Assembly: GCA_033344795.1 (NCBI GenBank)
Contig: JAWPMS010000001.1
Coordinates: 4,488,966-4,552,965 of the forward strand
DNA from: Acidimicrobiia bacterium
GTDB taxonomy: Bacteria; Actinomycetota; Acidimicrobiia; Acidimicrobiales; SHLQ01
Direction: 5' to 3'
DNA length: 64,000 nucleotides
Under the pieces are notes generated by a model, which saw only the letters and a list, made by a program, of their open reading frames with translations, searched no databases and had not been told where the DNA came from. This document shows positions 12,547-34,828 of the stretch, piece after piece (position 1 is the first letter of the stretch; each line of letters opens with the position of its first letter). The position numbers and the translations under genes are program-made.

Positions 12547-13734
12547 TCAATCGGGTGTACCGATTGTGGTGATGGTGCCGGCGCCGATGGTGCGGTTGCC
12601 TTCACGCATGGCGAAGGTCAGACCGACATCGATGGCCACCGGACGCTGCAGCGTGACGCTCACGTCGCAGCGACTACCCGGCTGCACCAACGATCCGTCA
12701 TCGACGGTGATCACACCGGTGACACCTGCAGTGAGGAAGAAGAACTGCGGCGCGTAGCCGCTCTGGAACGGCCGAGACCGTCCTCCCTCTTCCTTACTGA
12801 GCACGTACACCGAAGCGGTCAGCTCGCGCTGGGGCTCAATCGAGCCCGGCGCGCACACGACCATGCCACGCTCCACGGCGTCCTTGTCGACGCCGCGAAG
12901 CAACATGCCGACGTTGTCGCCCGCTTCGGCCTCGGTCATCGTCCGCCGGAACGACTCGATGCCCGTGACCACCGCTTCGACCGGCTCGCGCAGGCCAACA
13001 ACCTCAACGGTGTCGCCAACGTCGAGCCGACCTCGGGTGACCATGCCGGTGACGACGGTTCCACGTCCGGTGATCGTCTGCACTCCCTCCACTGCGAGCA
13101 GGAAGGGGTCGGCAATCGATCGATCCGGAAGCGGAATCGTGGCGTCGACCGCGTCGAGCAACTCCATGACGGTCGCCTCCCATGCCAGGTCGCCCCCGAG
13201 GGCGCCCAGTGCGGAGACGGCAACCATGGGCACTGTGTCGCTGTCGTAGCCGTGGGCTTCCAACATCTCGCGCAGCTCGAGCTCGACGAGCTCGAGTAGT
13301 TCGGGATCGGCCTGGTCGGCCTTGTTGATGGCAACGACCATGTGCTCGACACCGACCTGACGGGCCAGGATGATGTGTTCACGTGTCTGGGGTGCGGCAC
13401 CGTCGGCGCCGGACACCACGAGGATCGCACCGTCGACCTGGGCCGCGCCGGTGATCATGTTCTTCACGAAGTCGGCGTGGCCGGGCATGTCGATGTGGGC
13501 GTAGTGACGGCTGGCCGTCTCGTATTCGACGTGGCTGATGTTGATCGTGATCCCGCGGGCCTGCTCTTCAGGCGCCTTGTCGATCTGATCAAACTCCATC
13601 CACGTGTCGACACCGTTGGCCTTGGCCAGCACCTTGGTGATAGCGGCGGTCAGCGTGGTCTTGCCGTGATCGACATGACCCATCGTTCCGATGTTGACGT
13701 GCGGCTTCGTGCGAACAAACTCTTGTTTTGCCAT
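12547..13734 (-). CDS. tuf: Elongation factor Tu, divergent EF-Tu3-like paralogue
   Basis: [39 protein letters not shown]; stand-alone, not beside fusA/rps genes; AAAGGAG RBS. Confidence 0.95.
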
Positions 13735-15020: not shown

Positions 15021-18000
15021 CTACGTCGCACCGATTTCAGCCAAACGGCAGAGAGCTGACGCCAGCCGGACTTGCTCCGGCGTCTTGCATCGCGGTGATA
15101 GCAGCATCGGCGAAGCAACGACGATCGCCAGGCCTTGCGCGCGGGACACGGCAACATTCAAGCGGTTGGTGCTGTAGAGAAACTCCATTCCGCGGGGAGC
15201 TGACGTCGAATCTGAGCTCGTCATCGAGTAGATCACGATCGCTGCTTCTTGCCCTTGGAACATGTCGACCGTGCCGATCCTGGCGCGGTCGCCGAGCCGT
15301 CGCTTCAAGGCCGCGACCTGAGCGTTGAACGGTGCGACAACCATGATTTCCGCAGGCGAGATTGGCCGGACCGTACCCTGCTGGTCCGTCCACTCTTGGC
15401 CGATCAGCTCCCGGACCAACTCGTCAACACGGTCGATCTCTTCGTCTGAGCGGGACTTGTTGCCCGTGTGTTCGACTTCTTCGAATCGGATGCCAACGCC
15501 CGCTGGTGAAAGCGCCTGCCTGTCGGTCGCCGGAAACGACGCAAGTCGGCCTTCGTAGAACTGTTCGCTGATGAAGGACGTGACCGCAGAGTGCATCCGT
15601 CGGGTTTCCGGAAGAAACACCCCATGTCCGAGAGCGACGGTTGGTGAGTCTCCCAGCAGGTAGGCGAGTGCCGAGCGATCCGCGCCCTCTGGGTGTGTTG
15701 CGCGCGCCGGCTGATCGAGCTGCTGCGGATCTCCGACCAGGATGAGGTTCGGGGCAGCTGAGGCGGCGGCGAGTGTGTTTGCGAGCGAGATCTGTCCTGC
15801 CTCATCCACAAGCAGGGTGTCGAATGCGGCCGATACCTCCCGTCGAGCGAAGTAGAAGGCTGTTCCACCGACTACGTCGACTTCACCCGCTGCGAGCGCA
15901 GCATCCATCTGCGCGTTGCTTGCGAAGACAGTGACACCGGCGATGGCCGATTCTCGTTCCTTCTGGCGCCTTGCGAGACGAGCGCCAAGCCCTCGTTCCT
16001 GAGCTTGAGCCTGCACCGCCCTCATCAGGTTGTCGACAACCGCATGGCTGTTGGCCATCAGGGCCACTCGTCGCCCTTGTGCGACCAGATCACAGACGAT
16101 GCTCGCCGACGTGTAGGTCTTGCCGGCTCCAGGGGGCCCCTGAATGACCAGGTAGTCGCCATCAAGCTCCATTGCGCGGGCTCTGGCCTCAGACAGCGCG
16201 TCCGGATAGGACTGGATCGGGTCCTTGGGCGAGCGCAGCAGCAGCGACGCCACTGCGGGGTTATCCGAACTCAGATCTTCAAGTCCTCCGGACTTCGTCA
16301 CCTCGCCGAGTTGCTTGAGCGCCAGTTTCTGAGCTCGAGCCGGGATGGTTGCGTCCTTCGGGACAATCGATGCCGGATGCGTGTGACTGTCGACGGACCT
16401 CTTCCCGACCGAGATCGAGACGATCCAATTCTCGAAGTCGACCTCTTCGACCGTGCCGGCCCGGCTTCCGTTCGCTGGGTTGATCACCTGGACACCGCGC
16501 TTCAGGCGTAGCTCCTGGGGAGGGACCTGATACCGAAAGACGACACTCTGTCGAATAGGGTCACCCATGCCGATGAACTTCATTCCGCCGATGGCGACTG
16601 AGTTGTCGATGAGCTCTTCGTCTGTCATCGACAGTCGATCAAAGTGCTCCCACCAGTCGACCCGTTCTTCGCGCGCATGCCATTGCAGCAACTGAGCGAG
16701 CGTCCAGATCGCGTTGTCACGAACGCTCCGGTCTAGAGGATCGGACGGCACCATCGCTTCGAGGTCGAGTCGCAGGAGATCAACTTCCTCTGCGGCATCC
16801 GCCGAGCTCGGGTCTGGGCTCGGATCTGGAGTGGGCGGCCGGTCGATCAAGCCCCACTTCGCTTCAGCTTCGAGACGTCGATCTTCGAGCCAGTCGAGAA
16901 GCTGGCGTGTCGAGACACAATCGTCGAAGTTGTACTCGCCGATCTTGCAGAGGTGGTTCCGGTCACCCGAGACTAGCCACTTCTCATATTCGACTGCGCT
17001 CTCAACACCCGAACTCAGCTCGGTCTCCCGCCTATCCCGATAGAACACCTCGAGTTTCTTGATCGAGTAGCTGTCGATGGATGCCTGTAGTGCCTGCCGT
17101 GTCACCTGATGTAGATCGATCAACGCGCCGCCACGGAGCAATCTGTCAAGATCTGCTTGTCGCGTCCCGTGGCGGGCGGCGAGCCGCTTGAGTGCCGTCG
17201 GTTCGTAGATGCCGAAGTGGTAGATGTGCATCTCGGGGTTGTTGGCAAGTGCATCCATGAAAAGATCCATCGTCCGTTCGAACGCTCCCCTCTCATCCGA
17301 CGCTGCTTCTGCCCAAATCGGCGTGAATTGATCATCACGGTCGGTTATTCCGAACAGGTACTCGAGCCCACCAGCTGTGAGGAACGGGTCGCTCTCGATA
17401 TCGAAGAACAGGTCGTCAGCAGTCGGCGCCGGAAGCCTCCCAAAACCTGTCGGCGGTCCGTCAGCGTCAACTGGCTCGAGCAATCGCCACACATGCTGGC
17501 CCTTCTGCCGTTGTTCGAGCTGCAGCGCTGCCTGCTGTTGATACTTCGCAAACGAGTCGAGTCCGGCGTGCCCCTCTCGCTCAGTTGACTGAGCAAGTTC
17601 GGTGAGTGTGGTGACTCCGGCAGCTTCGAGTTTGGTTGCCTGCGAACGACCAACATCGGCGACGAGCGTCAGGTGATCGTCATCGAGGCGTTGGCTTCGG
17701 CAAACAGATGACCAGTCACAACGAGAACAGTGTTCAACCGGGTCAGGGTAGACGGCGAGGAGGTCCGGACCGACCGAAGCCTCGAAGTCCGCCTTTACTG
17801 ACCGGTGATAGGGGGCGATCTGGACAAGAGCAAAGGACTCGACTCGGCCATCTCCGAGCACGAGGTGAACGTTCTCGGGCTGTTGCCCTTGGATCCGTTT
17901 GATGTGAGTCGAGTACTCGGCAAGCTGCACCAGCGCTGTCGCTTTTGCAACGTTGCTTAGCTTCGTGTCGTACACCTCGTAACCGTAGGCACCGAGCGCT

Positions 18001-18371
18001 GTCTGGAATTCATCCCGACGGATGAGAAAGTCAGCCTTGCCGCCCCAGTTCTTGTCTTGAAAGACTGCTTGGTAGATGACCTGAACACCGGACCGCATCG
18101 CCACTTCGGTTTCAGCTACCTGCGCCGCCAAGTCGGCCGACTCATCAATCGCCAGGACCTGTATTCCGTCTGCTCGGAGCTGGGTGAGGCACCGCTGCTC
18201 ATGGAGGAGACCGTGAGTGCGGACCAGGTCGGCGGCCGCGTCGTTTGCAAAGCGTGGTCGCTGCCGGTCGCCGGTCGCTGCTGCATGGTTGAGCCCTGTC
18301 AGATGCCGACATTCGAGGTGGTTGACGAGATCCGTTGGGCTGAAGACGAGGTTCTGGTTGCGTTCCATCAT
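15021..18371 (-). CDS. TM0106-family RecB-like nuclease / RNase H-like / SF1 helicase fusion
   Basis: KADFL...VYDTK nuclease motif with Cys cluster (HCSRCDWSSVC); LFFDIE...YSIKKLE...YNFDDC; QGPPGAGKT, VDEAGQ, VGDPQQL, TVDMFQGQE, NVAVSRA. Confidence 0.92.
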   Translation of the reverse strand: MMERNQNLVFSPTDLVNHLECRHLTGLNHAAATGDRQRPRFANDAAADLVRTHGLLHEQRCLTQLRADGIQVLAIDESADLAAQVAETEVAMRSGVQVIYQAVFQDKNWGGKADFLIRRDEFQTALGAYGYEVYDTKLSNVAKATALVQLAEYSTHIKRIQGQQPENVHLVLGDGRVESFALVQIAPYHRSVKADFEASVGPDLLAVYPDPVEHCSRCDWSSVCRSQRLDDDHLTLVADVGRSQATKLEAAGVTTLTELAQSTEREGHAGLDSFAKYQQQAALQLEQRQKGQHVWRLLEPVDADGPPTGFGRLPAPTADDLFFDIESDPFLTAGGLEYLFGITDRDDQFTPIWAEAASDERGAFERTMDLFMDALANNPEMHIYHFGIYEPTALKRLAARHGTRQADLDRLLRGGALIDLHQVTRQALQASIDSYSIKKLEVFYRDRRETELSSGVESAVEYEKWLVSGDRNHLCKIGEYNFDDCVSTRQLLDWLEDRRLEAEAKWGLIDRPPTPDPSPDPSSADAAEEVDLLRLDLEAMVPSDPLDRSVRDNAIWTLAQLLQWHAREERVDWWEHFDRLSMTDEELIDNSVAIGGMKFIGMGDPIRQSVVFRYQVPPQELRLKRGVQVINPANGSRAGTVEEVDFENWIVSISVGKRSVDSHTHPASIVPKDATIPARAQKLALKQLGEVTKSGGLEDLSSDNPAVASLLLRSPKDPIQSYPDALSEARARAMELDGDYLVIQGPPGAGKTYTSASIVCDLVAQGRRVALMANSHAVVDNLMRAVQAQAQERGLGARLARRQKERESAIAGVTVFASNAQMDAALAAGEVDVVGGTAFYFARREVSAAFDTLLVDEAGQISLANTLAAASAAPNLILVGDPQQLDQPARATHPEGADRSALAYLLGDSPTVALGHGVFLPETRRMHSAVTSFISEQFYEGRLASFPATDRQALSPAGVGIRFEEVEHTGNKSRSDEEIDRVDELVRELIGQEWTDQQGTVRPISPAEIMVVAPFNAQVAALKRRLGDRARIGTVDMFQGQEAAIVIYSMTSSDSTSAPRGMEFLYSTNRLNVAVSRAQGLAIVVASPMLLSPRCKTPEQVRLASALCRLAEIGAT

Positions 18372-18373
18372 CG

Positions 18374-19627
18374 CTACTCACCACCCCGCATCGCTCGTGA
18401 GGCGCGATCAAGTGCGGATTCCACTTCTCGGCGGAGGGTTGCGACATGTTCGGCCGCGGTGTCAATAGCGTTCCGGGCCTGCGTGTGGGACCGTTTGATC
18501 GTGCGTTCGGCTTCGAGTGCTCGCACTGCGTCGTCGATCGCTACACAAACCTGCTCGGCGTCGATCTCCGTCTGCTGCGGAGCGGTACAGTCTCGCTGCG
18601 CCACCCACCGAGCCCACATGTACGCGACCCGAAGCGCAGCGTCGTCCTCACAGTCTTTGTCGAGAACTGCGATGGCCTTGTTGCCAAAGGTATGGAATGG
18701 GACTGAAGTCGGCGCCAGGTCCTGACCTCGGAAGACAGCAATCGCCGCAGAGGCGTCGCGATTGTCGAGCGCCTGATCGAGTTCGTCAAGAATGTTGCGG
18801 AGCCCGAGCTTGCGGGCCTTCGCCTCAAGGACGAAGCGGACGGTCGAACCGCCCACATCGGCTGGGTTGAGGGTGATGACTTCATCGCCCTTCTTGGAGC
18901 CAGCGCTGCCGACATCGGTGCCCGTCTGTTCTGGCAGATCGCCATGTGGCGCTGCGAGTGTGAGCAGTACTTCGTGAATTGTGTCTTCGAAGGCCACACC
19001 CTTTGCCGGACTCAGCTCGATGACTTCAGCAACTGCCTCCTTGACTGAGACCGACTCAGCGATCCGGTTGATCTCTTCGCGCATCGAACGAAGTTCGCCG
19101 GCGAGTCGCTTCTCCAGTCCCTGCCCGAGAGCCCGCAACGGGCTTCCGTCAGAATCGAGAGACACCAACGCTCGCAGGCGTTCCATCTGGTCTCGACCCA
19201 TCCGATCGAGGTGGGGTGAGATCTGTGAGGCGATGCTTCGCGCCGAGTCGGGGTCGGTTGCGATCTCGAGGAGCTGTACCAGTTCTCGCTTCTGGGCGTC
19301 GAGGGCCTGTGTCATCGAGCCGTTCTCTGGGTCGAGAAGGCTCATGGCGGCACTATTGATCTCGGCGACCGCTGCGTCGACGTTGGCGCGGAATGTGGTG
19401 GTCATGGAGTCGAAGGACGCGGTAACCGTCGTCTCATCGATCCCTGCTTGTGCAGCGCGGATGGCACGAGCTCCGAGCGCAAGGCACTCGACCACAGCAT
19501 CAGCTGGATCGGTTGCGTTCTGAACGTGAGCGACGACGTCTCGGTCAACGACTACGAGTTCGGAGATTCTGAGTACGTCGTCGTTGCACGTGACCAGCGA
19601 CTTCGGGAACTTCAGAGGTTCTGCCAT
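18374..19627 (-). CDS. Coiled-coil protein with C-terminal PD-(D/E)XK-like domain (RmuC/DUF2130-like architecture)
   Basis: Long helical N-terminal half; KGVAFE...KKGD...VLEAK...NRDA; AAGGAGG RBS before ATG 19627. Confidence 0.75.
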   Translation of the reverse strand: MAEPLKFPKSLVTCNDDVLRISELVVVDRDVVAHVQNATDPADAVVECLALGARAIRAAQAGIDETTVTASFDSMTTTFRANVDAAVAEINSAAMSLLDPENGSMTQALDAQKRELVQLLEIATDPDSARSIASQISPHLDRMGRDQMERLRALVSLDSDGSPLRALGQGLEKRLAGELRSMREEINRIAESVSVKEAVAEVIELSPAKGVAFEDTIHEVLLTLAAPHGDLPEQTGTDVGSAGSKKGDEVITLNPADVGGSTVRFVLEAKARKLGLRNILDELDQALDNRDASAAIAVFRGQDLAPTSVPFHTFGNKAIAVLDKDCEDDAALRVAYMWARWVAQRDCTAPQQTEIDAEQVCVAIDDAVRALEAERTIKRSHTQARNAIDTAAEHVATLRREVESALDRASRAMRGGE

Positions 19628-19756
19628 GACACCTCCTTTCGGGTTCTTGGTGAGCAGGTGACCAAGAACGGTTACGCAACGAAGTGTCAGAGGATTCTTG
19701 TTTTCTCTCACCGCGGACGCGGCCGATTGCTGTTTCGCTATGAGATAGTGGGGCCA

Positions 19757-20149
19757 ATGACTCCGAACAACCTTGGCGTGCTGCTCTCAAATATGAGCAC
19801 GAACGGAGGTTCGTTCTACCGACTTCGGGAAGCCGACACCTGTTGGTCAGTCAAAGAAGACCGCCCTTGGGTCTTTCCCAACGGCTACGACCCTGGGCGC
19901 AGCATCAACTACGCCCTGCCCCGGTCGACTACCGACCGCAGAACTGGCCCCAACTCATCACCGTCAATCCCTCACGCAAAGCACGAACACGACGATGAGG
20001 AGATGTGCGACATCAACTGCGATGGCTGGGTTGTGGGTGAACCGCACCCGGTGAAGCGGGAGTGGATTCAAAACGCTTCCTTCATTTGCGATGAGCCTGA
20101 TTGGAGAGTGCTCACAGACATCAAGCTCCTCTTCAACGAGTGCCTATGA
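19757..20149 (+). CDS. Hypothetical protein, possible PemK/MazF-like fold
   Basis: GSFYRL...DRPWV...ALPRST...DGWVV spacing resembles PemK; stop overlaps next ATG; alternative start 19793. Confidence 0.6.
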   Translation: MTPNNLGVLLSNMSTNGGSFYRLREADTCWSVKEDRPWVFPNGYDPGRSINYALPRSTTDRRTGPNSSPSIPHAKHEHDDEEMCDINCDGWVVGEPHPVKREWIQNASFICDEPDWRVLTDIKLLFNECL

Positions 20150-21069
20150 CGAGCCTCGTCGAACTTCGGGTTGAGTACGAGCGTGAGCACTTCGGTGCAT
20201 TGCTGTACGACCTCTCCTCACGTGTCGTGACAAACGGCCTACGAGGCAAGCCACCGTCGATCTATCAGCCGACAGGTCCGGAAGACGTTCTCCACGGTTT
20301 CATCGAAACCGTGCTCCTCGGCCAGAACCAGCTCGAGTACTTCTTCACCGTGGCGACGGACGTTCAACACTTCGAACGCTTGTGCTATCGACAGCTGAGG
20401 CGCTATCTCGCTTCAACCCGGGTGCAAACAGATGTGGACAGACTCATGAAGCGGTCAGTCAAGATTCTCAGGGACGATGATCGATTCGAATCGATCGATG
20501 GCCCCCCTGATCGTTTTTTCATGTCAAGCGGTTCTAGCTTGCCGTTCGCCCCCGGCCGCTGGCGCGCTGCCGCCACGCTGGCATTGAACGGTGTACCGCG
20601 GATCTTCTCCGAGCCCAAGCAAAGATCACCAAAGATCTACACCGACGACAACCTTGGAATCCTCCTATCCATCGTGCTCCGAGAATTGGAGGGTTCAGTC
20701 TCGCGCTCCGACCTAGCGAAGCTTTTTGAAGAAATTCTGACACCATGGCTTACAACGGTCCTTGAAGAGGATGAGGCAGCGCGTCTGCCTTCCCACAAAC
20801 CGACCGGAGAAGAGGATGCGATCGTGAGCGAGGCGCTCGAGGCAATCTTGCCGCTCCTAGACGAGGAAGCTGCCTTCGTGTTCCGGCACTGGTACGCGAA
20901 GACAAAAGACGACTATGTCGCCGACCGTCTAGGCGTGAGTCGTACGACTGTCATCAATAGACGGAACGCAGTTGGTTCGGCGCTGCAACCGCACCTCGAG
21001 GGCTTGCCAGTTCACCTGCAGGAGGCGACCCTCCGATCTCTCTTCTTGGCTACCGGAGGGTCACCATGA
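20146..21069 (+). CDS. Sigma-70-like protein (region 2-like N-terminus, region 4 HTH C-terminus)
   Basis: PEDVLHGFIE...YRQLRRYL; LDEEAAFVF...YVADRLGVSRTTVINRR; ATGA overlaps at both ends. Confidence 0.65.
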   Translation: MTSLVELRVEYEREHFGALLYDLSSRVVTNGLRGKPPSIYQPTGPEDVLHGFIETVLLGQNQLEYFFTVATDVQHFERLCYRQLRRYLASTRVQTDVDRLMKRSVKILRDDDRFESIDGPPDRFFMSSGSSLPFAPGRWRAAATLALNGVPRIFSEPKQRSPKIYTDDNLGILLSIVLRELEGSVSRSDLAKLFEEILTPWLTTVLEEDEAARLPSHKPTGEEDAIVSEALEAILPLLDEEAAFVFRHWYAKTKDDYVADRLGVSRTTVINRRNAVGSALQPHLEGLPVHLQEATLRSLFLATGGSP

Positions 21070-21998
21070 TCCCAGAACCGCTTCAGACCAAGATCGCATC
21101 TGCCAAAGCAAGGCGCGCGCCGTCAAACCGCCCTCTTCCAGCTTTCGAGACGGGCGAGCTAGCCGTCGCAAAGTCGCCTGACGGCGACGTGCGTCGGATC
21201 ATCTTGATCACGAAGATCGAGAACGCCGGGGTATGCAGGGTGAGGCTGGCAACAAATGAGATCGAGATGGCGACAGATTTCGATTTAAGGGTCGAACCTG
21301 CTGACTCTGGCTTTCCAGCAAGACTTCTCGTGCAGCCTGAGCTCTTCGGGCCAGTCTTCAAGAGCCAGCTAGTCGAACTCGTCGGTTCCGTCGCCGACGA
21401 GCTAACCAATGCCGTTGCTGAAGCCCTTCGCACCGACGCTGACTCGATACCCCAAGACAGAACCGGTTTGCCGCTCGGTGGATCAGTCGACCTTCGCCGC
21501 GACTTCAAGGAAGACGAAATCGATGACCTTGAAGCACTCGTACGCGAGTGCCGAGCCTGGTTGATGGGGGCCCCATCCGATCGACGGATCCTCGACCCGA
21601 AGGCCTTCCTGCCGCCACCAGCCACGGCGTCACAAGATGAGATGTTCGACGCCTACCTCGACCTGCTCGACACACTCAAGAGTGTCGACTCGGGCGAAGT
21701 CGAGCTTCCTGATCTTGAGTCGCTGTTCGACACCGAGGCATTCACGCAGATCCGCCGATGGCAGGAGTTGTTCAACTTCAACTTCTGGGACTGGTGGTCG
21801 CTGCACTGCACACGCGCTGATATCGCGCGAGCCAGCAGCGCAGGCGAAGAAGTTCCTGTTGATGAATTGCGCCTCGCTGCGCTGGACAGAGGGAACCCCG
21901 AGCCATCAGTGACAGTCGACTTTGTGAGCCGTCGTTCGTTCGCCGGGGAGACCGTTACACACGAGTTCACCGCAATCCGAGTGCTGGAGGCAGCCTGA
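21066..21998 (+). CDS. Hypothetical protein, N-terminal PemK/SH3-like beta domain
   Basis: GELAVA...RRIILI...VRLATNEIEMATDFDL...LLVQPEL...QLVELVGSV; GGAGG RBS. Confidence 0.65.
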   Translation: MIPEPLQTKIASAKARRAPSNRPLPAFETGELAVAKSPDGDVRRIILITKIENAGVCRVRLATNEIEMATDFDLRVEPADSGFPARLLVQPELFGPVFKSQLVELVGSVADELTNAVAEALRTDADSIPQDRTGLPLGGSVDLRRDFKEDEIDDLEALVRECRAWLMGAPSDRRILDPKAFLPPPATASQDEMFDAYLDLLDTLKSVDSGEVELPDLESLFDTEAFTQIRRWQELFNFNFWDWWSLHCTRADIARASSAGEEVPVDELRLAALDRGNPEPSVTVDFVSRRSFAGETVTHEFTAIRVLEAA

Positions 21999-23758
21999 TG
22001 ACGAAGACCACCCTGCTTATCGAGCGAGTCGAGATCGAGGCCTTCAAATCGATCAGCAGTGCAGAGATCTCGTTGTCGCCGCTCACGGTCGTTACCGGTC
22101 AGAACTCCGCGGGTAAGAGTTCGCTGCTACAGGCGGTTCGGCTTTGTGCTCATCTTTCTTCACTTCGGGGAGGTGAGGGCGCGGTGCAGCTCAATGCGCC
22201 TGAGCTTCGACTTGGGGATTTTGGAGACATCCTGCATAAGAGCGCTGGAAGAGAAGTTCGAATCAACCTGCAAATTTCAGGCGAACATCCCGCTACTCGG
22301 TGGGGCTATATTCTCGGCGCTCGCTCCAACCGCGTGGGAGCGCAGCTCGAGGGGATGGAGTTGTTTGGCCGCGAGGAGGGCCTGGTCCTCGCACGGAGGG
22401 CGGAAGACGACGACTCCTCCGACCTTTGGAAGTTGTCTGAACAAACTGAGACTTACGGAGGTGCGTCTGACACATTGCGACGACTTGGCTTTGCACGTGA
22501 TCGCAACATGACCAGCGCGTCCGCCGGCTTCGAAGGATCAATCCGAACCATTCGCTCAATTAGGTCTGGTTCGCGCGAAAACAGGCCGGTGAGGCTTGCA
22601 GAGATTGCTGGCGCTCTGCCAGCGGAACTCCTCGAGGAACACTCTTACGCTCGCTCATTGGCTCGTAGTTACGTACAAGAGCTCCGTGAGGATGATTGGC
22701 TGTTCGCCGAGCAATCCTTCTTCCCTGGAGACTGGCAACTCGACTTTGAACATGATCTCCATCACTACCTTGCCGACCGCCTCGGCAGCAGCGTTGAACT
22801 GGACATAGAAGAGTCAGATGAGCGTCCCTCAGCAAGCGGCAATATCCCGGCAGGTGCGGAGCCCGAATGGTGGCGAGACCAAGAACGACTCGTCGAGCGC
22901 CACATCAAGCAGCTAATTGAGCTCAACAAGATTCCTCCAGGAACTGTCTTGGATGAGCTTGAGTCGGACGACCTTGATGATGCGAAGAATTTTGTCCGCT
23001 CTCTTCCTGAGCGAATTCACTACCTTGGTCCGCTCCGGTCCGAGCCTGCTGCGAGTCTGCCCGCTGGTCACTCGACCTCAGGCCTAGCGCTGCTGGGTAC
23101 GCGAGGCGAGTCCGCTGTTCCATTTCTATTCGAGTACCAGGACCTCGAAGTCTCCTGTCCCATGCCAGACGGGCGAGGGACGGAGGAGATGCCCCTGTTG
23201 CGAGCGGTAGGTGTTTGGCTGGAAGCACTTGGCATCGCCGAACGGCACGAAATTCAGCCGGTGTCACAGTCACTGGAGTACAGGCTCATCGACCCTCAGA
23301 CGAAGGAGAAGCGCGACCTGACGTCTGTCGGAGTGGGCGCCTCTCAGATTTTGCCGGTCCTTGTTCTATGCCTCGCCGCCAAACCCGGCGAACTCGTACT
23401 GCTCGAGCAACCTGAGCTCCACTTACACCCCAGGCCGCAGCAGATCTTGGGAGACTTCTTTCTGGGCATCGCCCGAACAGGTCGGCAGCTTCTCCTGGAG
23501 ACGCACTCGGAATACTTGATCAATCGTCTTCGGCTCCGGCTCGCCGAGCAACCGGATGAGGTCTCGGCTCTAACGAGCATTCTCTATGCAGAGCGCACAG
23601 CCGGGGCAACAGACTTTCTCGAGTTGCGCCCAAATGACTTTGGTGGATTCGAGGACTGGCCAAGCGGCTTCTTCGACCAGCTGCCAGCCGAGGCAGAGAA
23701 GATCGTGCGGGCGGCGGCTGAACGCCGACGTGAGCAAGCTCGCCTAGAAAGTTCCTGA
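21998..23758 (+). CDS. ABC-type (AAA_15/AAA_21) ATPase with DUF3696-like C-terminus
   Basis: AFKSI, GQNSAGKSS, VGVGASQILP, LLEQPELHLHP, ETHSE, WPSGFFDQ; TGATG coupling. Confidence 0.9.
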   Translation: MTKTTLLIERVEIEAFKSISSAEISLSPLTVVTGQNSAGKSSLLQAVRLCAHLSSLRGGEGAVQLNAPELRLGDFGDILHKSAGREVRINLQISGEHPATRWGYILGARSNRVGAQLEGMELFGREEGLVLARRAEDDDSSDLWKLSEQTETYGGASDTLRRLGFARDRNMTSASAGFEGSIRTIRSIRSGSRENRPVRLAEIAGALPAELLEEHSYARSLARSYVQELREDDWLFAEQSFFPGDWQLDFEHDLHHYLADRLGSSVELDIEESDERPSASGNIPAGAEPEWWRDQERLVERHIKQLIELNKIPPGTVLDELESDDLDDAKNFVRSLPERIHYLGPLRSEPAASLPAGHSTSGLALLGTRGESAVPFLFEYQDLEVSCPMPDGRGTEEMPLLRAVGVWLEALGIAERHEIQPVSQSLEYRLIDPQTKEKRDLTSVGVGASQILPVLVLCLAAKPGELVLLEQPELHLHPRPQQILGDFFLGIARTGRQLLLETHSEYLINRLRLRLAEQPDEVSALTSILYAERTAGATDFLELRPNDFGGFEDWPSGFFDQLPAEAEKIVRAAAERRREQARLESS

Positions 23759-23821
23759 CACCTCAAGCCGCAAGCCTGCTTGATGATTGTGTAAGCGAAG
23801 CCGAACTACGGAAGCGAAACT

Positions 23822-25366
23822 GTGCTCGAAGCCGAAACAAAAAGGCAGATTGACCAGGTCTGGAACGACTTCTGGTCGGGCGGGATCTCCAATCCTCTTG
23901 AAGTGATGGAGCAGCTCACCTACCTGCTGTTCATCAAGCGGCTCGACGATCTCCACACGCTGGAAGAACGACGGGCGAACCGGACCGGGCGTCCAATGGA
24001 ACGACGCATCTTTCCCGAGGGAAACGACCAGTCGGGTATGCCGTATGAGAACTACCGCTGGTCGCGCTTCAAGGGTCTACGCAACGAGGAGATGTACTCC
24101 ATCGTCGCCGACTCCGTCTTCCCCTTCCTCCGCAAACTCTCCAACAGTGCGACCTACCTCGAGAACATGGAAGGGGCGCGGTTCACCATCCCGACAGCAT
24201 CGCTCCTCGGACGAGCAGTGAAGGGCCTCGACTCGATCCAGATGGACGACAGTGACACCAAGGGCGATGTCTACGAACACATGCTGTCGAGCATCGCTAC
24301 TGCTGGACAGAACGGACAGTTTCGCACACCTCGACACATCATCGAGCTCATGGTCCACATGATGGACCCCCAGCCTGATGATGTCGTTTGCGACCCCGCC
24401 TCCGGGACCGCTGGATTTCTGGTGGGTGCTGCGGAGTACGTCCGCAAGAACAACCCAGAGCTCTTCACCGACGAGAAGAGCCGTCGTCACTACATGCAAA
24501 CAATGTTCCACGGCTTCGACTTCGATCGGACCATGCTGCGAATCGGATCGATGAACATGATTCTGCACGGCGTCGATGACCCAACGATCAAATACCGGGA
24601 CTCGCTGCTCGAAGAGTCGGAACAAGATGAATCGAAGTACACCGTCGTGCTGGCCAACCCGCCTTTCGCAGGCTCGCTCGATGCCGACGCCGTGGCGAAA
24701 GACCTAGTGCGAGGTCCACGCAAGACCCGGAAGACCGAGCTCCTATTCATCTCGCTGTTCGAACGGATCCTCAAGGCACCGCATGGGCGGGCCGCAGTGA
24801 TCGTTCCTGACGGTGTTCTGTTTGGATCGACGAAGCCGCACAAGGAGCTTCGCCGCATGCTGGTCGAAGACCACCGACTCGACGGCATCGTGTCGCTCCC
24901 CTCGGGCGTGTTCAAACCGTACGCGGGTGTGTCGACGGCGATCCTTCTGTTCACCAAGACCAACTCGGGTGGCACCGACCATGTGTGGTTCTACGACATG
25001 CAAGCCGACGGCTTCAGCCTCGACGACAAACGCGCAGAGCTCCTCGACCCCGACAAGCTCGGCGCCACCGCCACGCTCACCGACGACGAGCACGACAAGA
25101 ACAACCTCCCCGACGCCCTCACCCGCTGGAACACCCTGCGCACCAACCCAGCCGCCGAACAGGAACGCGCCCGCACCGAGCAGAGCTTCTGCGTGCCGAA
25201 GGACGAGATCGCCGACAGTGAATACGACCTTTCGATCAACCGCTACAAGGAAATCGTCTACGAACAGATCGAGTACCCCGCCCCCGCCGATATCATCGCC
25301 AACCTCGAACAACTCGAAGCCGAAATCACCCAAGGCCTCGCTGATCTTAAGGCGATGCTCGCATGA
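23822..25366 (+). CDS. hsdM: Type I R-M methyltransferase subunit
   Basis: GQFRTPRHII, DPASGTAGFL, ANPPF, VPDGVLFG, YDLSINRY. Confidence 0.96.
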   Translation: MLEAETKRQIDQVWNDFWSGGISNPLEVMEQLTYLLFIKRLDDLHTLEERRANRTGRPMERRIFPEGNDQSGMPYENYRWSRFKGLRNEEMYSIVADSVFPFLRKLSNSATYLENMEGARFTIPTASLLGRAVKGLDSIQMDDSDTKGDVYEHMLSSIATAGQNGQFRTPRHIIELMVHMMDPQPDDVVCDPASGTAGFLVGAAEYVRKNNPELFTDEKSRRHYMQTMFHGFDFDRTMLRIGSMNMILHGVDDPTIKYRDSLLEESEQDESKYTVVLANPPFAGSLDADAVAKDLVRGPRKTRKTELLFISLFERILKAPHGRAAVIVPDGVLFGSTKPHKELRRMLVEDHRLDGIVSLPSGVFKPYAGVSTAILLFTKTNSGGTDHVWFYDMQADGFSLDDKRAELLDPDKLGATATLTDDEHDKNNLPDALTRWNTLRTNPAAEQERARTEQSFCVPKDEIADSEYDLSINRYKEIVYEQIEYPAPADIIANLEQLEAEITQGLADLKAMLA

Positions 25367-26463
25367 CGGCCGCATGGCCGGAGGTCTCCCTCGGCGAGAT
25401 CGTCGAATTGAAGTATGGAAAGTCGCTTCCGAAGGCGAAGCGGACGGGAAGTGGGTTCGGCGTCTACGGCTCGAACGGTGAGGTCGGGCGACACGAGCTG
25501 GCTTTGACATCTGGACCGACGATCGTCGTTGGCCGGAAGGGCTCCCATGGAGCAGTGAATTTCAGCTCGGACTCGTGCTGGCCAATCGACACCACGTACT
25601 TCGTGGATCACTCGTGTACCACAGCTGACCTTGATTGGCTCAAGTACCGCCTGAAAGGTCTACGCCTAGACGAGCTAAACCAGGCCGCAGCCGTCCCGGG
25701 CTTGAACCGCGAGGATGCTTACCGACGCAAGCTGATGCTGCCACCGATTGAGGAACAGCGGCGAATTGCCACGTTGCTGGATGCGGCCGACGAGCTCCGA
25801 ACCAAACGCCACCAAGCCCTCGCCAAGCTCGACAACCTCACCCAAGCCATCTTCATCGACATGTTCGGCGACCCCGCTCGAAACACGAAGGGTCTCCGTG
25901 TCCAAACTCTCGGAGAGCTTGGCGAATGGCGATCAGGAGGGACTCCGCCCCGAAACAATTCTGACCACTTCGTTGGCCCGATCCCGTGGTACTCCTCGGG
26001 CGACCTGAAGTCCGAGTTCCTTAGCGAAGCCTCCGAGAGCATTAACCAGAGAGCAATCGAAAGCACTTCAGCGAAGGCAGTACCGGTCGGGGCTTTGTTG
26101 CTCGGGATGTACGACACTGCCGCTCTGAAATCTGGCATAGCGACTACAGCGAGCTCCTGCAATCAGGCCGTTGCATTCGCCCGCTTGGACGAATCGGTAG
26201 TTTCAACACGCTACGTCTACGCCGCAATTCAGCTCGGTAAGGACCACTTCAAGCGAAATCAGCGGGGGGTTCGTCAGAAAAACCTGAACCTTACGATGAT
26301 TCGCGAGATCCCGATACCGGTCCCAGCTAGAGAAGCGCAGCGCGAGTTTGAGGCTCACCTTCAACATGTGGACGTTCTTCGAACGACGGCCATGAGTTCA
26401 GACGACCACCTCGACACGCTGTTCGCTTCGCTGCAGCAGCGGGCCTTCGCAGGGGAGCTCTGA
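25363..26463 (+). CDS. hsdS: Type I R-M specificity subunit
   Basis: Two TRDs with LPPIEEQRRI and IFIDMFGDP spacer; SLQQRAFAGEL terminus. Confidence 0.95.
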   Translation: MTAAWPEVSLGEIVELKYGKSLPKAKRTGSGFGVYGSNGEVGRHELALTSGPTIVVGRKGSHGAVNFSSDSCWPIDTTYFVDHSCTTADLDWLKYRLKGLRLDELNQAAAVPGLNREDAYRRKLMLPPIEEQRRIATLLDAADELRTKRHQALAKLDNLTQAIFIDMFGDPARNTKGLRVQTLGELGEWRSGGTPPRNNSDHFVGPIPWYSSGDLKSEFLSEASESINQRAIESTSAKAVPVGALLLGMYDTAALKSGIATTASSCNQAVAFARLDESVVSTRYVYAAIQLGKDHFKRNQRGVRQKNLNLTMIREIPIPVPAREAQREFEAHLQHVDVLRTTAMSSDDHLDTLFASLQQRAFAGEL

Positions 26464-29400
26464 TGGGCCAGTTCAACCATCTCGAAGAGTTCGAGGAGGC
26501 CAAGAAGACGGCCGACCAGGCCTCGTTGTTCGCTCTGCCCGACCCGCGCGCCTCGTGCTTCTACTCACGTCTCACGCTCGAGCTGTTGATCAAGTGGGCC
26601 TTCGAGCACGATCGCTCACTTGATCGGCCCTACGACGACAACCTGTCGGCTCTGCTCCACTCGCGGAGCTTTCGCCAGCTTGCTGGCGATCGGATCTTCA
26701 AGATTGCAAAGGAGATCATCCGGTACGGCAACAAAGCTGTCCACGACGCTGGGGCGCCAAGCCGTCACGACTCGGTCGCATGCGTCGCTGCACTCTTCAG
26801 CTTCAGCCACTGGTTTGCCCGCACCTACGCACGAACCCACCGTCCGTCAACCGAACTTCGCTTCGACCCGAACGAACTGCCGAACCCAGCTAATCGCGCT
26901 CTGAAGAGCCGTCAGCAGTTGGAAGAACTCGAACAGGAGCTTGAGGCGCAGCGCCTTGAGACCGAGCTCGTCCGAAAACGTCTGCACGGCGCTGAGAAAC
27001 TCGAGGAAGAGACCGCCGCCCTCCGGGCCCAGATCGACGAGCTACGCAAACAGCGCGCTGGCGAGCCAGCCAACTTCGACCTCAAAGAGGACGACACACG
27101 CGAGTACCTCATCGACCTTCTCCTGCAGGAGTCCGGGTGGTTGATCGGAACCACCGCCATCACCGAGCATCCAGTGTCCGGCATGCCAAATACGAGCGGC
27201 ACCGGCCGAGTCGACTACGCGCTCATGGGTCAGGACGGTCGGCCTCTGGCAATTCTTGAGGCAAAGCGGGCAAGCAAAGACCCAGGCTCTGGGCGCCAGC
27301 AAGCGTTGCTCTATGCGGACCAGATCGAGGCGGCTACCGGCCAGCGTCCGATCATCTTCTACAGCAACGGCTATGAACACTGGATCTGGGACGACGCTCG
27401 CTACCCACCTCGTCAGATTCAGGGATTCCTGACTCGCACAGAACTCGAGCTCGCGATCAACCGACGGACGACCCGCAAGTCACTGCTCAGCACCCCCGTG
27501 AAGCCGAGTATCGCCGACCGCTACTACCAACAACGGGCGATCCGGTCGATCACCGAGTCGTTCGAGAACGACAACGAACGCAAAGCGTTGCTCGTGATGG
27601 CGACGGGCACCGGCAAGACCCGCACTGTCGTTGCGCTCACGGACCTCATGATGGACACCCGATGGGCGCACCGGATCCTCTTCCTCGCCGACCGGCGCGC
27701 GCTTGTGAAGCAGGCGGTCCGCGCGTTCAAGGAGCACATCCCCGATTCCCCGCCCGTGAACCTGCTTGAAGACCGGCATGGACAGGGTGACATCTATGTC
27801 GCCACATACCCCACGATGAGCGGGCTCATCGACGAGCTGCAACCGGACGGTACTCGTCGGTTCGGCCCTGGCTTCTTCGACCTCGTGATCATCGACGAGG
27901 CCCATCGCTCTGTCTACAACCGCTATCGGCACATCTTTGAATGGTTCGACAGCCTCCTCGTTGGCCTCACGGCGACGCCAAAGGACGAGATCGACCGAAA
28001 CACGTACAGCCTGTTCGACCTTGTGACCGGATCGCCAACAGACGTCTACGAGCTCGAGAGCGGTGTCGCCGACGGTTTCCTTGTCCCCCCGCGAGCTATC
28101 TCCGCACCCCTGAGGTTCCCCAACATGGGTATCACCTACGACGAACTCACCGACGCCGAGAAAGAAGAATGGTCGGCCCTCGATTGGTCACCCGACGCCG
28201 ACGACGACCCGGACGTCCCGCAACGTGTCGATCCGAAGGCACTCAATGACTGGCTCTTCAATGCCAACACCGTCGACGAATCGCTGAAGATGCTGATGCG
28301 CGACGGCCAACACGTCGAGGGCGGCGAGCTGCTCGGAAAGACGATCATCTTCGCCAAGAGCCGAAAGCACGCCAACTTCATCGTCACGCGCTTCGATCAG
28401 CTCTATCCGCATCTCAAGGGCTCCTTTGCCCGCGTGATCACGGCAGACCTCGACTACGCGGAGGATCTTCTTGAGGACTTTGAGGACGCCGGAAGCGAGC
28501 TGCGAATCGCAGTGTCGGTCGACATGCTCGACACCGGCGTCGACATCCCCGAGGTGGTCAACCTCGTCTTCTTCAAGCCAGTTCGCTCGAAGGCCAAGTT
28601 CTGGCAAATGATCGGCCGAGGAACCCGGCTGCGCCCCGGGCTGTTCGGGCCAAGCCCAGATGGCGACAAGCACTCATTCACGGTGATCGATCACTGCATG
28701 AATCTTGAGTACTTCAGCCAGAGCATGCTCCCGGCAGAGGGCCCGGTCGGACCGACCCTGGATGCACAGATCTTCGAGGCGAGGATGGACATCGTTGCGC
28801 ACCTGGACGAAGCCGGAGACCGAAGCGAGCTCCGCCCCAGGATCGTGAACGACCTCTCTGAGCGCATAGCGGACATGAACCTCGAGAGTTACCAAGTTCG
28901 ATCACATCGAGCACTCGTGGAGAAGTACCGCGAGGCCGAGTCATGGGACGAAATCTCGCTCGAGGACCGTGGTGCGCTGATTCGAGACGTTGCGCCGCTT
29001 CCCGTCATGACCCGCGGCGACTCCCAAGACGTCAGGCGATTCGACCTCCTGATGTTCAAGCTCGAGCTGGCAGTGCTCCAGAACCACCCAGCGCGAGACC
29101 GATTGCGACGACGTCTCGTTTCGCTTGTAGAACGATTTGAAAAGGCCCAGTCGGAAAGTCACGCCGAACTTATGGAGGAGATCCTGGGCGATAGCTGGTG
29201 GGATGGCCTATCGGCAGACTCAGTCGAACACGCGCGGCGGGAGCTGCGAGCCTACGCGGAGTACGTCCAAGCGGAAGAACGAGACATCCTCTACACGAAC
29301 TTTCAGGACGACTTCATGGACTTGTCCGAGGTCGACCTCGCTGATCTCTCTGACGCGGCCGCGTTCAGCGAGTTCCGAAAGAAGGCGAACGCCTACCTAC

Positions 29401-29843
29401 GAGAACACTTGAACGAAGGCGTCGTGGCCAAGCTCCGCAAGGCAGAGCCAATCGACGAGAACGACATTCTCGAGCTGCAGAGCATCTTCGTAGCTGCCGG
29501 AATCGGGAGCCCAGCCGATTTCGAGTTCGCGACCGAACGCGCTGGGAGCTTCGGCCGGTTCATCCGATCACAGGTCGGGCTCGAAACCGCCGCTGTTCAA
29601 TCAGCCTTCTCCGAATTCCTCGACAACAAGGCCTACTCGTCGGCACAGATCCGCTTCATCGAGCTGGTGATCAGCCAGCTGGCTACTGCGGGCTCGATCG
29701 CCGCCGGCGATCTGTACACGGCTCCGTTCACACTCCTTGCGCCGCAGGGTCCAGAGTCACTGTTCAACGAAGGCCAGATCGACTCGGTTCTTGCCATCGT
29801 CGATGGCATCGAGCAACGCGCCAGCGGGGGTAGCCGCAAGTGA
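26463..29843 (+). CDS. hsdR: Type I R-M restriction subunit (EcoAI/EcoEI-like)
   Basis: VDYAL...ILEAK nuclease; MATGTGKT, IIDEAHR, LTATP, QMIGRGTR; EcoEI_R-like C-terminus. Confidence 0.96.
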   Translation: MGQFNHLEEFEEAKKTADQASLFALPDPRASCFYSRLTLELLIKWAFEHDRSLDRPYDDNLSALLHSRSFRQLAGDRIFKIAKEIIRYGNKAVHDAGAPSRHDSVACVAALFSFSHWFARTYARTHRPSTELRFDPNELPNPANRALKSRQQLEELEQELEAQRLETELVRKRLHGAEKLEEETAALRAQIDELRKQRAGEPANFDLKEDDTREYLIDLLLQESGWLIGTTAITEHPVSGMPNTSGTGRVDYALMGQDGRPLAILEAKRASKDPGSGRQQALLYADQIEAATGQRPIIFYSNGYEHWIWDDARYPPRQIQGFLTRTELELAINRRTTRKSLLSTPVKPSIADRYYQQRAIRSITESFENDNERKALLVMATGTGKTRTVVALTDLMMDTRWAHRILFLADRRALVKQAVRAFKEHIPDSPPVNLLEDRHGQGDIYVATYPTMSGLIDELQPDGTRRFGPGFFDLVIIDEAHRSVYNRYRHIFEWFDSLLVGLTATPKDEIDRNTYSLFDLVTGSPTDVYELESGVADGFLVPPRAISAPLRFPNMGITYDELTDAEKEEWSALDWSPDADDDPDVPQRVDPKALNDWLFNANTVDESLKMLMRDGQHVEGGELLGKTIIFAKSRKHANFIVTRFDQLYPHLKGSFARVITADLDYAEDLLEDFEDAGSELRIAVSVDMLDTGVDIPEVVNLVFFKPVRSKAKFWQMIGRGTRLRPGLFGPSPDGDKHSFTVIDHCMNLEYFSQSMLPAEGPVGPTLDAQIFEARMDIVAHLDEAGDRSELRPRIVNDLSERIADMNLESYQVRSHRALVEKYREAESWDEISLEDRGALIRDVAPLPVMTRGDSQDVRRFDLLMFKLELAVLQNHPARDRLRRRLVSLVERFEKAQSESHAELMEEILGDSWWDGLSADSVEHARRELRAYAEYVQAEERDILYTNFQDDFMDLSEVDLADLSDAAAFSEFRKKANAYLREHLNEGVVAKLRKAEPIDENDILELQSIFVAAGIGSPADFEFATERAGSFGRFIRSQVGLETAAVQSAFSEFLDNKAYSSAQIRFIELVISQLATAGSIAAGDLYTAPFTLLAPQGPESLFNEGQIDSVLAIVDGIEQRASGGSRK

Positions 29844-29874
29844 CAAGACTGGCCGAACCCAACCGGAGAGCGAA

Positions 29875-31215: not shown

Positions 31216-31236
31216 GAAAGTCGATATTTGGTCTCG

Positions 31237-34819: not shown

Positions 34820-34828
34820 GTTGGGCTC

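Follow-up and report, generated by a model that had tools for sequence, protein, structure and literature searches.

A four-gene cassette with an ABC ATPase and a MazF-fold protein, conserved in Actinomycetota in front of type I restriction-modification genes, as a candidate anti-phage module

HEC-03 (Hma-embedded candidate 3, Payne et al.) consists of an ATP-binding cassette (ABC) ATPase and a PIN (VapC-like) protein of about 140 amino acids (aa); according to the text of that report phage protection needs both genes, and the pair was found embedded in or beside restriction-like systems (10.1101/2024.01.29.577857). The same text presents PARIS, composed of the ABC ATPase AriA and the TOPRIM protein AriB, as being triggered by the anti-restriction protein Ocr, so that it guards restriction (10.1101/2024.01.29.577857). 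Menshen is made up of NsnA, NsnB and NsnC (Li et al., NAR 2025, PMC12065111). Its main text describes NsnA as having ParB-DUF262 and ParBDB domains, and gives as peculiarities of NsnB an arginine at the Q-loop position, GxG replacing SGG, and a DUF3696 tail; the NsnB tails are predicted to clamp the non-catalytic domain of the effector. NsnC is described there as an N-terminal inactive PIN-like domain followed by a C-terminal nuclease, that is, a constant ATPase-binding part with exchangeable effectors. The main text counts 15 NsnC effector families, MazF not among them (the term 'MazF' occurs there 0 times), and places 27.9% of the Menshen operons beside BREX, restriction-modification (R-M) or methylase genes. 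PrrC, finally, is reported to be silenced by a linked R-M enzyme and to be switched on by an anti-restriction factor from phage (PMC2610378). Here we describe a cassette of four genes, g1 to g4, found in a stretch of 64,000 nucleotides from an Acidimicrobiia bacterium (contig JAWPMS010000001.1, positions 4,488,966 to 4,552,965), which is called the window in the following, and compare it with these systems.

The cassette and the genes that follow it are, in positions of the window:

19757-20149, plus strand, g1, 130 aa (open reading frame listing and translation)
20146-21069, plus strand, g2, 307 aa (open reading frame listing and translation)
21066-21998, plus strand, g3, 310 aa (open reading frame listing and translation)
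21998-23758, plus strand, g4, 586 aa (open reading frame listing and translation)
23822-25366, plus strand, hsdM (Pfam N6_Mtase/HsdM_N)
25363-26463, plus strand, hsdS (Pfam Methylase_S)
26463-29843, plus strand, hsdR (Pfam ResIII/HSDR_N/EcoEI_R_C)

Along the chain the four genes overlap by 4, 4 and 1 base (ATGA at 20146, ATGA at 21066 and TGATG at 21996-22000), and the type I R-M operon hsdM-hsdS-hsdR lies directly 3', with 63 bases between the g4 stop and the hsdM start. An original prediction, made from the letters of the window alone, had described such a chain directly upstream of hsdMSR as a possible new anti-phage system; its coordinates are exact, and Pfam confirms the three hsd genes. 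No terminator-like site was found in the 63-base gap, and no sigma-70-type promoter-like site in 19400-24000. From this layout, hsdMSR is a linked neighbour of g1-g4 and is possibly co-transcribed with the cassette.

To follow the unit into other genomes, one genome per species was scanned with a degenerate DNA pattern for the conserved g3 motif. This census yielded 13 motif-selected loci and covers those g3 genes that keep the motif, so that the co-occurrence counts describe that subset. Twelve of the loci are labelled Actinomycetota and one comes from an unclassified metagenome-assembled genome. Six-frame searches revealed homologues of g2, g3 and g4, adjacent and in this order, at 11 of the 13 loci, while the remaining two have just an N-domain-type g3 open reading frame (234 and 155 aa). 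A g1 homologue lies directly 5' of the g2 homologue wherever that side is visible (10 of 10; the eleventh locus is cut by a contig end). The gene-neighbourhood comparison suggested with the original prediction therefore returned a conserved order; that the four genes adjoin one another by chance was rejected, since the same order recurs in other genomes.

The census also revealed the link to restriction. Directly 3' of the g4 homologue, in the same orientation and after a short gap, hsdM is present at 8 of the 10 other loci in which this side is visible, as it is in the window; the gap is about 80-90 bases in three of these loci. In one genome (G407) Pfam identified full hsdM, hsdS and hsdR genes after the cassette. 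The HsdM of the window matches the HsdM proteins of other cassette loci at E 1e-18 to 1e-21 only. Judged by these sequence comparisons, g1-g4 are one conserved actinobacterial cassette located in front of type I R-M operons.

The cassette is rare. g3 was found in none of 60 searched relatives of the window genome, 25 of which belong to the same genus, and turned up in 2 of the 400 genomes sampled from the phylum. In the window the cassette lies in an island of about 18 kb (about 14.5-32.6 kb) with a guanine-plus-cytosine (GC) content of 0.56-0.61, compared to mostly 0.62-0.68 in the flanks. Rarity among relatives together with a lower-GC island is as expected for accessory, transferred DNA.

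Three parts of the g3 protein are distinguished:

21138-21446, plus strand, MazF/PemK-fold domain of g3, residues 25-127 (AlphaFold2 and fold search)
21489-21518, plus strand, conserved motif D-x-R-x3-K-x2-E of g3, residues 142-151 (family alignment)
21552-21995, plus strand, C-terminal domain of g3, residues 163-310 (no clear fold match)

g3 itself had no match in Pfam, PADLOC or NCBIfam, and PemK_toxin (PF02452) was not matched even at E<=1. A word-index protein search returned a single relative with 57% identity, and a full HMMER profile search at E<=1e-3 returned 657 representative clusters, of which 364 also passed E<=1e-10; in public records the relatives are listed as 'hypothetical protein'. 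None of 83 full-length relatives matched a relevant Pfam or PADLOC family, the sole PADLOC match being Csn2 at chance level. A tblastn search of 50,697 phage records with a g3 relative gave no match, and a Protein Atlas search with g3 gave nothing usable. In the protein collection g3 is recorded as a 243-aa protein beginning with Met68. Since the 57%-identical relative and 15 more relatives keep the upstream residues, the 310-aa start is the better one and the 243-aa version begins too late.

An AlphaFold2 model of g3 calculated with 83 sequences reached a pLDDT (predicted score in the local distance difference test) of 91.3 and a predicted template modelling (pTM) score of 0.84. Residues 25-127 of this model superimpose on MazF-mt3 (8zws_A) with VIA Z 12.5 and a root mean square deviation of 2.6, 98 of 105 residues being aligned. 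The top 11 rows of VIA (Z>=8.9) comprise 8 named MazF, Kid or CcdB proteins and 3 unnamed toxins of toxin-antitoxin entries, followed by CptN at Z 7.6 and then by unrelated folds at 5.5. Foldseek gave 45 matches at E<=1e-3 with a best E of 2.5e-5, and the rows listed are MazF-family toxins or an unnamed mycobacterial endoribonuclease. The profile of the N-domain matched that of 23 PemK proteins from related genomes over 94 columns (hhalign 96.3%, E 1.5e-9), and the 83-sequence family profile matched only MazF6 and MazF9 among the PDB sequences, weakly (E 0.07-0.3). We are confident, on the basis of the predicted structure, that the N-terminus of g3 has the MazF/PemK fold, which agrees with the PemK-like fusion originally proposed for this gene.

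The hhalign alignment places R44 of g3 on the arginine of the PemK 'RP' and T63 on a conserved threonine, an Arg and a Ser/Thr which we take to be the MazF catalytic positions. Conservation within the family is as follows:

Position 44 of g3: Arg in 64 of 83 relatives
Position 63 of g3: Ser or Thr in 68 of 83 relatives
Position 73 of g3: Asp in 82 of 83 relatives
Position 101 of g3: Gln in 81 of 83 relatives
Position 144 of g3: Arg in 83 of 83 relatives
Position 148 of g3: Lys in 78 of 83 relatives
Position 151 of g3: Glu in 78 of 83 relatives

The two parts of g3 also occur separately. Stand-alone relatives of the N-domain (barrel plus motif, about 150 aa) were found with no g1, g2 or g4 nearby. 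In the genome G288 (L012 9085-11549) a 284-aa partner located 3' of a g4-related ATPase matches the C-terminal domain of g3 with its N-terminus and is DUF2325-like at its C-terminus. By analogy, this separate occurrence fits a modular effector-plus-adaptor design like that of NsnC. A prediction of the g4-g3 complex (1:1, own alignments) scored 0.00 and counts neither for nor against binding.

Stand-alone N-domain genes were located at L089 7001-7450, L018 1453-2229, L024 3033-3737 and L029 1078-1545. Their surroundings include a region rich in toxin-antitoxin genes on a 322-kb Mycobacterium intracellulare plasmid, a Cas6-like gene directly adjoining and, in a third case, an adjoining gene for an RlaP RNA-repair nucleotidyltransferase. 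At E<=1e-8 the window genome (G000) lacks a match to canonical PemK_toxin (PF02452), and 7 of 12 searched relatives have 1-6 such matches.

The following features were mapped in g4:

22097-22120, plus strand, Walker A (motif)
22160-23002, plus strand, variable insert between Walker A and YLGPLR, residues about 55-335
23393-23416, plus strand, Walker B (motif)
23573-23692, plus strand, DUF3696-type tail (profile match)

g4 matches AAA_15 and AAA_21 in Pfam and has a Walker A motif (GQNSAGKS, residues 34-41), YLGPLR (342-347), the signature GxGxSQ at 445-450, EQPE as Walker B (470-473) and ETHSE as H-loop (501-505). Together with a WP..FFDQ tail these motifs are invariant or nearly so in 12 relatives. 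DUF3696 scores 18.2 bits on g4, under the Pfam cut-off of 22, and 28.8-42.2 bits, above that cut-off, on relatives. Intact ABC-ATPase motifs and a DUF3696-like tail had been proposed for this gene, and both are borne out by the relatives.

In PADLOC the best match of g4 is NsnB (9.7e-64, with residues 8-569 aligned to positions 2-342 of the 345-position profile), followed by HEC-03B (5.4e-43) and PDC-M55A (3.7e-33). The HEC-03B match mainly involves residues 336-578, and a true HEC-03 member, from genome G189, scores 7e-147. Other ATPase models are far weaker: AriA at 1e-22, GajA at 7.5e-15 or weaker (both PADLOC), Old also far weaker, and PtuA at 2e-6 (NCBIfam). g4 exceeds the NsnB profile in length by about 240 residues, which sit between Walker A and YLGPLR, and this long insert is strongly divergent between relatives and clades. 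On these profiles g4, with its intact motifs and DUF3696-type tail, is placed in the class of ABC ATPases that comprises Menshen NsnB and HEC-03B.

Relatives of g4 at E<=1e-20 were present in 7 of 400 sampled genomes of the phylum and are listed in public records as 'DUF3696 domain-containing protein'. The relative in G189 belongs to a true HEC-03 locus, the partner there matching the PADLOC model listed as HEC-03A (5.4e-31). A long NsnB-type relative in G282 (L011 8230-14023) lies inside BREX, with an unmatched 351-aa protein between a PglX-type methylase and PglZ.

For g2 one domain was located:

20776-21015, plus strand, region 4-type helix-turn-helix (HTH) of g2, residues about 211-290 (predicted structure and profiles)

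In an AlphaFold2 model of g2 calculated without an alignment only residues 220-304 are confident, and residues 1-219 have low confidence. Residues 211-290 (pLDDT 71-87) matched sigma region 4 structures with Z 8.5-7.5, the top 10 rows all being sigma factors, and the fold matches include region 4 of WhiG, AlgU and SigE. An 11-sequence g2 profile matched region 4 of SigF at E 0.002, and hhalign aligned g2 with region 4 of extracytoplasmic function (ECF) sigma factors from related genomes at 38% (E 3e-4). LuxR/GerE-type HTHs trail closely (Z 7.4-6), and because they score nearly equal, 'region 4-type HTH' is the safe wording. In these terms it is established from the predicted structure, in agreement with what had been proposed, that the C-terminal part of g2 is an HTH of sigma region 4 type.

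Support for the region 2-like start that had also been proposed for g2 is weak. In hhalign against the ECF sigma factors, region 2 aligned over just 15 columns with a DLVQ-like motif (0.4%). Two g2 relatives matched positions 2-165 of TIGR02937 (NCBIfam sigma70-ECF) at E ~1e-5 with 25 bits, and g2 itself reached 16.3 bits, against a cut-off of 42.9. A Pfam search of the window genome with Sigma70_r2 gave 20 matches at E<=1e-10, g2 not among them, and in the Protein Atlas g2 returned unnamed actinobacterial clusters, the rows carrying Sigma70_r2 being weak. Neither g2 nor its relatives had a family match above the cut-off in Pfam, PADLOC 2.0 or NCBIfam. A sigma likeness beyond region 4 may be taken as a lead from these profiles. 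The relatives of g2 measure 307-384 aa and are named 'hypothetical' or 'helix-turn-helix transcriptional regulator' in public records.

g1 is, by sequence, a real conserved protein. It is not an artefact, because homologues precede g2 in all loci in which that side is visible; its codon-position GC (0.54/0.46/0.69) resembles that of its neighbours, and E25, P37, R56, H76, C84, G90 and C111 are invariant among 8 sequences. The invariant His and Cys residues would perhaps bind a metal. g1 had no match in Pfam, PADLOC or NCBIfam, and its relatives had none above the cut-off. The original prediction saw a PemK-like protein here as well, and this was not substantiated by any profile comparison: the 8-sequence profile aligned co-linearly with PemK over 79 columns at an insignificant 1.2% (E 0.042), among PDB sequences S. 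aureus MazF scored an equally insignificant E 1.5-1.6, and no likeness to the g3 profile was found. That g1 and g2 are orphans was considered and rejected, as HMMER profile and six-frame searches found relatives of both; the word-index search is insensitive.

HEC-03 and Menshen as the nearest among the defence systems with tested function, together with the precedents of PrrC and PARIS, led us to read the cassette as an anti-phage module of the abortive type, in which an ABC ATPase with a toxin-fold effector would be genetically coupled to type I restriction; on the sequences, models and analogies considered here we give this reading about an even chance of being right. g4 would act as the sensor or switch that controls the effector. 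g3 would be this effector, its MazF/PemK-fold domain probably cutting RNA and its C-terminal domain probably docking it to the DUF3696 tails of g4. Docking is proposed because the separate occurrence of the g3 domains mirrors the NsnC pattern. g2 could be a DNA-binding regulator, or an antitoxin-like or sensor subunit, and g1 a small accessory protein. The module may back up or guard the restriction system, as PrrC and PARIS do.

Several observations weigh against this reading. The presumed catalytic positions are kept in about 80% of the g3 relatives and not in all of them, and the family has additional invariant acidic residues (E67, D71, D73) that are foreign to canonical MazF. CcdB, a gyrase poison, shares the fold of the g3 N-domain (Z 8.9). 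Since these acidic residues are invariant and CcdB shares the fold, the chemistry of g3 may differ from that of MazF. For the C-terminal domain of g3 a clear fold match is lacking (YdcF, at Z 5.5, ranks first in VIA), and the analogy to NsnC is only architectural because the three strands of this domain are not PIN-like in look. The functions proposed here for g1 and g2 amount to guesses. Apart from the chance-level Csn2 match, no PADLOC model matches g1, g2, g3 or their relatives, and 0 of the 3 relatives at the locus L028 matched a PADLOC model. The window's own clade has three members, of which two (L031 and L025) lack an hsdM beside the cassette, so that its linkage to restriction is not obligatory; one of these two loci carries instead a homologue of the 417-aa gene found upstream of g1 in the window.

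A bolder version, which we regard as a long shot, would make the cassette a four-part immune switch that guards restriction. The insert of g4 would read the type I complex or a phage anti-restriction protein and free g3 for RNA cutting, while g2, checked by g1 in the manner of a sigma/anti-sigma pair, would redirect or block RNA polymerase. Such a switch would turn failed restriction into a joint shutdown of transcription and translation, and its transcription-factor logic would be new among ABC-ATPase defences. If the cassette proves phage-protective in any form, the modules of ABC ATPase plus effector would be extended by an effector of MazF fold, a subunit that resembles sigma factors and a fourth protein, and the g3 family, whose 657 representative clusters have no Pfam, PADLOC or NCBIfam model, would receive a named function. 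The cassette would then also be a case in which a toxin of toxin-antitoxin type was recruited to multi-gene immunity by gaining a docking domain. The near-constant place before hsdM makes the cassette a tractable case for the wiring of abortive defences to restriction, for which mainly PrrC and PARIS have served so far.

The same genes could also form a type II toxin-antitoxin-like addiction module with g3 as toxin, g2 as antitoxin and autorepressor, and g4 as an added modulator, which would stabilise the restriction island or a mobile element. In favour are the MazF fold of g3, with its conserved Arg and Ser/Thr positions, and the place of g2, which has an HTH and precedes g3 with an ATGA overlap in the usual antitoxin-then-toxin layout. 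The toxin-antitoxin-rich plasmid region around stand-alone relatives of the g3 N-domain and the lower-GC, apparently transferred island around the cassette point in the same direction. However, at 307-384 aa and with its sigma-like character g2 is unlike the small antitoxins of MazE type, a g2 homologue is missing from the stand-alone loci, and g4 and g1 accompany g2-g3 in every complete locus, so that a two-gene addiction view leaves half of the unit unexplained. We consider this explanation unlikely; many toxin-antitoxin modules are themselves phage defences, so that it overlaps with the abortive anti-phage reading. The neighbourhood of hsdM raises a further alternative, namely a unit that regulates the type I R-M system or is an accessory to it, with no defence function of its own, in which g2 with g1 would set transcription of hsdMSR and g3 and g4 would tune restriction (alleviation, or timing after transfer). 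The recurrence of hsdM after g4 in the same orientation and at a short distance, in most of the visible loci as in the window, is what such a unit would show, and the HsdM comparison indicates that not every linked R-M system is a close relative of the others, which hints at a functional link. The sigma-like g2 and a 9-base inverted repeat 5' of g1 in the window would suit a regulator, but the repeat was not seen 5' of g1 in 5 other loci and two loci have the cassette with no hsdM beside it. The controllers known from R-M systems are small proteins of HTH type, and to our knowledge no R-M control needs an ABC ATPase and a MazF-fold protein. As the closest relatives of g4 are moreover effector-coupled defence ATPases, we hold such an accessory role to be distinctly unlikely.

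A third alternative is that the cassette is a diverged Menshen, with g2 replacing NsnA, g4 as NsnB and g3 as NsnC. It draws on the NsnB match of g4 over the full profile, on the three core genes, which would again be a DNA-binding-type protein, an ATPase and a two-domain effector, and on the share of Menshen operons reported beside BREX, R-M or methylase genes. Against this, no ParB-DUF262 domain was detected in g1-g3 (Pfam, E<=1) or in 11 g2 relatives (Pfam, E<=0.1), with a very remote likeness being possible in the N-terminal 220 residues of g2, which have no confident fold; the PADLOC models of NsnA and NsnC did not match g1-g3. The domain order of g3 is reversed, its MazF fold is outside the 15 effector families that the main text of the Menshen report gives for NsnC, the genes are arranged in another order, and a fourth gene is conserved. 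A diverged Menshen thus appears highly improbable to us.

The island that holds the cassette is bordered by an EF-Tu-like gene (12547-13734, minus strand) and by fatty-acid oxidation genes (32618-36112, minus strand); no transfer RNA genes were found in the window. The gene divergent from g1 most likely starts at 19627, where it has a good ribosome-binding site, which leaves an intergenic region of 129 bases before g1. This region contains the perfect 9-base inverted repeat GTTCTTGGT-N9-ACCAAGAAC at 19643-19669, by its sequence a candidate operator; no comparable repeat was present in the matching stretch 5' of g1 of the 5 other loci. The divergent gene codes for a 417-aa protein (18374-19627, minus strand) with no family match and is followed, within the stretch 15021-19627, by a gene for a 1116-aa protein with RNase_H_2 (RecB-like) and superfamily 1 helicase domains, whose best PADLOC match is Mokosh MkoA (1e-43, helicase part). 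In Mycobacterium sp. RTGN5 a homologue of the 417-aa protein lies just 3' of the cassette and adjoins an HNH-helicase (L033 102-3752). The two genes may be a separate two-gene module travelling with the cassette. On the other side (26463-32616), the N-terminus of HsdR carries a DUF4145 domain, and hsdR is followed by genes for two proteins, one of 492 aa that matches a treble-clef zinc finger (DUF4379) and one of 462 aa, an HNH protein, whose match to type IV restriction enzymes is weak. By these domain matches the latter two genes are further defence-type cargo of the island.

How, then, does the cassette relate to the described systems? No TOPRIM or HNH domain was found in g1-g3 by Pfam, in line with the original prediction, which had noted no such partner in the operon; the partner that characterises PARIS, Gabija and Septu is thus lacking from these three proteins. 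A full-text literature search, covering article texts but not the supplements of the Payne and Menshen reports, turned up neither an ABC ATPase partnered by a MazF/PemK protein nor this cassette. PARIS resembles the cassette, as far as its description goes, in an ABC ATPase that holds a nuclease effector, and differs in the far weaker match of AriA to g4 (1e-22 versus 9.7e-64 for NsnB) and in its TOPRIM partner. With MazEF/PemIK (Kid-Kis) the cassette shares the fold of the g3 N-domain, mostly kept catalytic positions and an overlapping upstream gene, and probably a homology to PemK at the profile level. The Pfam PemK_toxin model does not match g3, the cassette has no small MazE/PemI-type antitoxin, g3 adds the motif D142, R144, K148, E151, invariant in the family, and a C-terminal domain, and full-length g3 is always found with an ABC ATPase.

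PrrC and RloC, as described, likewise couple an ABC ATPase to RNA cutting and are tied to a type I R-M operon. There, however, a single polypeptide is both ATPase and nuclease, the nuclease does not resemble MazF, and no sequence match to the cassette beyond the general ABC core was found; moreover, prrC sits between hsd genes and not upstream of them. The silencing of PrrC by its R-M enzyme nevertheless offers a ready model for the position of the cassette at hsdM.

Menshen is closer. Its NsnB is the best match of g4, and g4 shares with the NsnB described in the main text the arginine (in YLGPLR), the GxG and the DUF3696 tail; both systems have a two-module effector and frequent R-M or BREX neighbours. 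In g3 the effector domain is N-terminal and MazF-fold, the reverse of the order given for NsnC, and its other domain is not recognisably PIN-like. The cassette also has a sigma-like protein, a small fourth protein and another gene order.

HEC-03 has an ATPase that is apparently of the same class as g4, a partner with a toxin-antitoxin RNase fold, and a location near restriction genes. Its partner is a PIN protein, whereas the cassette has a MazF-fold domain with the motif and a C-terminal domain of 150 residues, and the PADLOC model of the HEC-03A partner matches none of g1-g3. In addition g4 is about 240 residues longer, g1 and g2 are extra, and the position 5' of hsdM is fixed. Since the defining features of Menshen, HEC-03, PARIS, Gabija and Septu are not all found here, the cassette belongs to no named system. 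The original claim of a new system without a named match holds in so far as PADLOC 2.0, Pfam and NCBIfam contain no complete catalogued system that matches, g4 alone being recognised by PADLOC, and has to be narrowed in so far as this ATPase is nearest to NsnB and HEC-03B. The logic of an ATPase combined with an RNase-fold toxin is already known from HEC-03, and the cassette is most likely a variant, not yet catalogued, of known modules of anti-virus defence.

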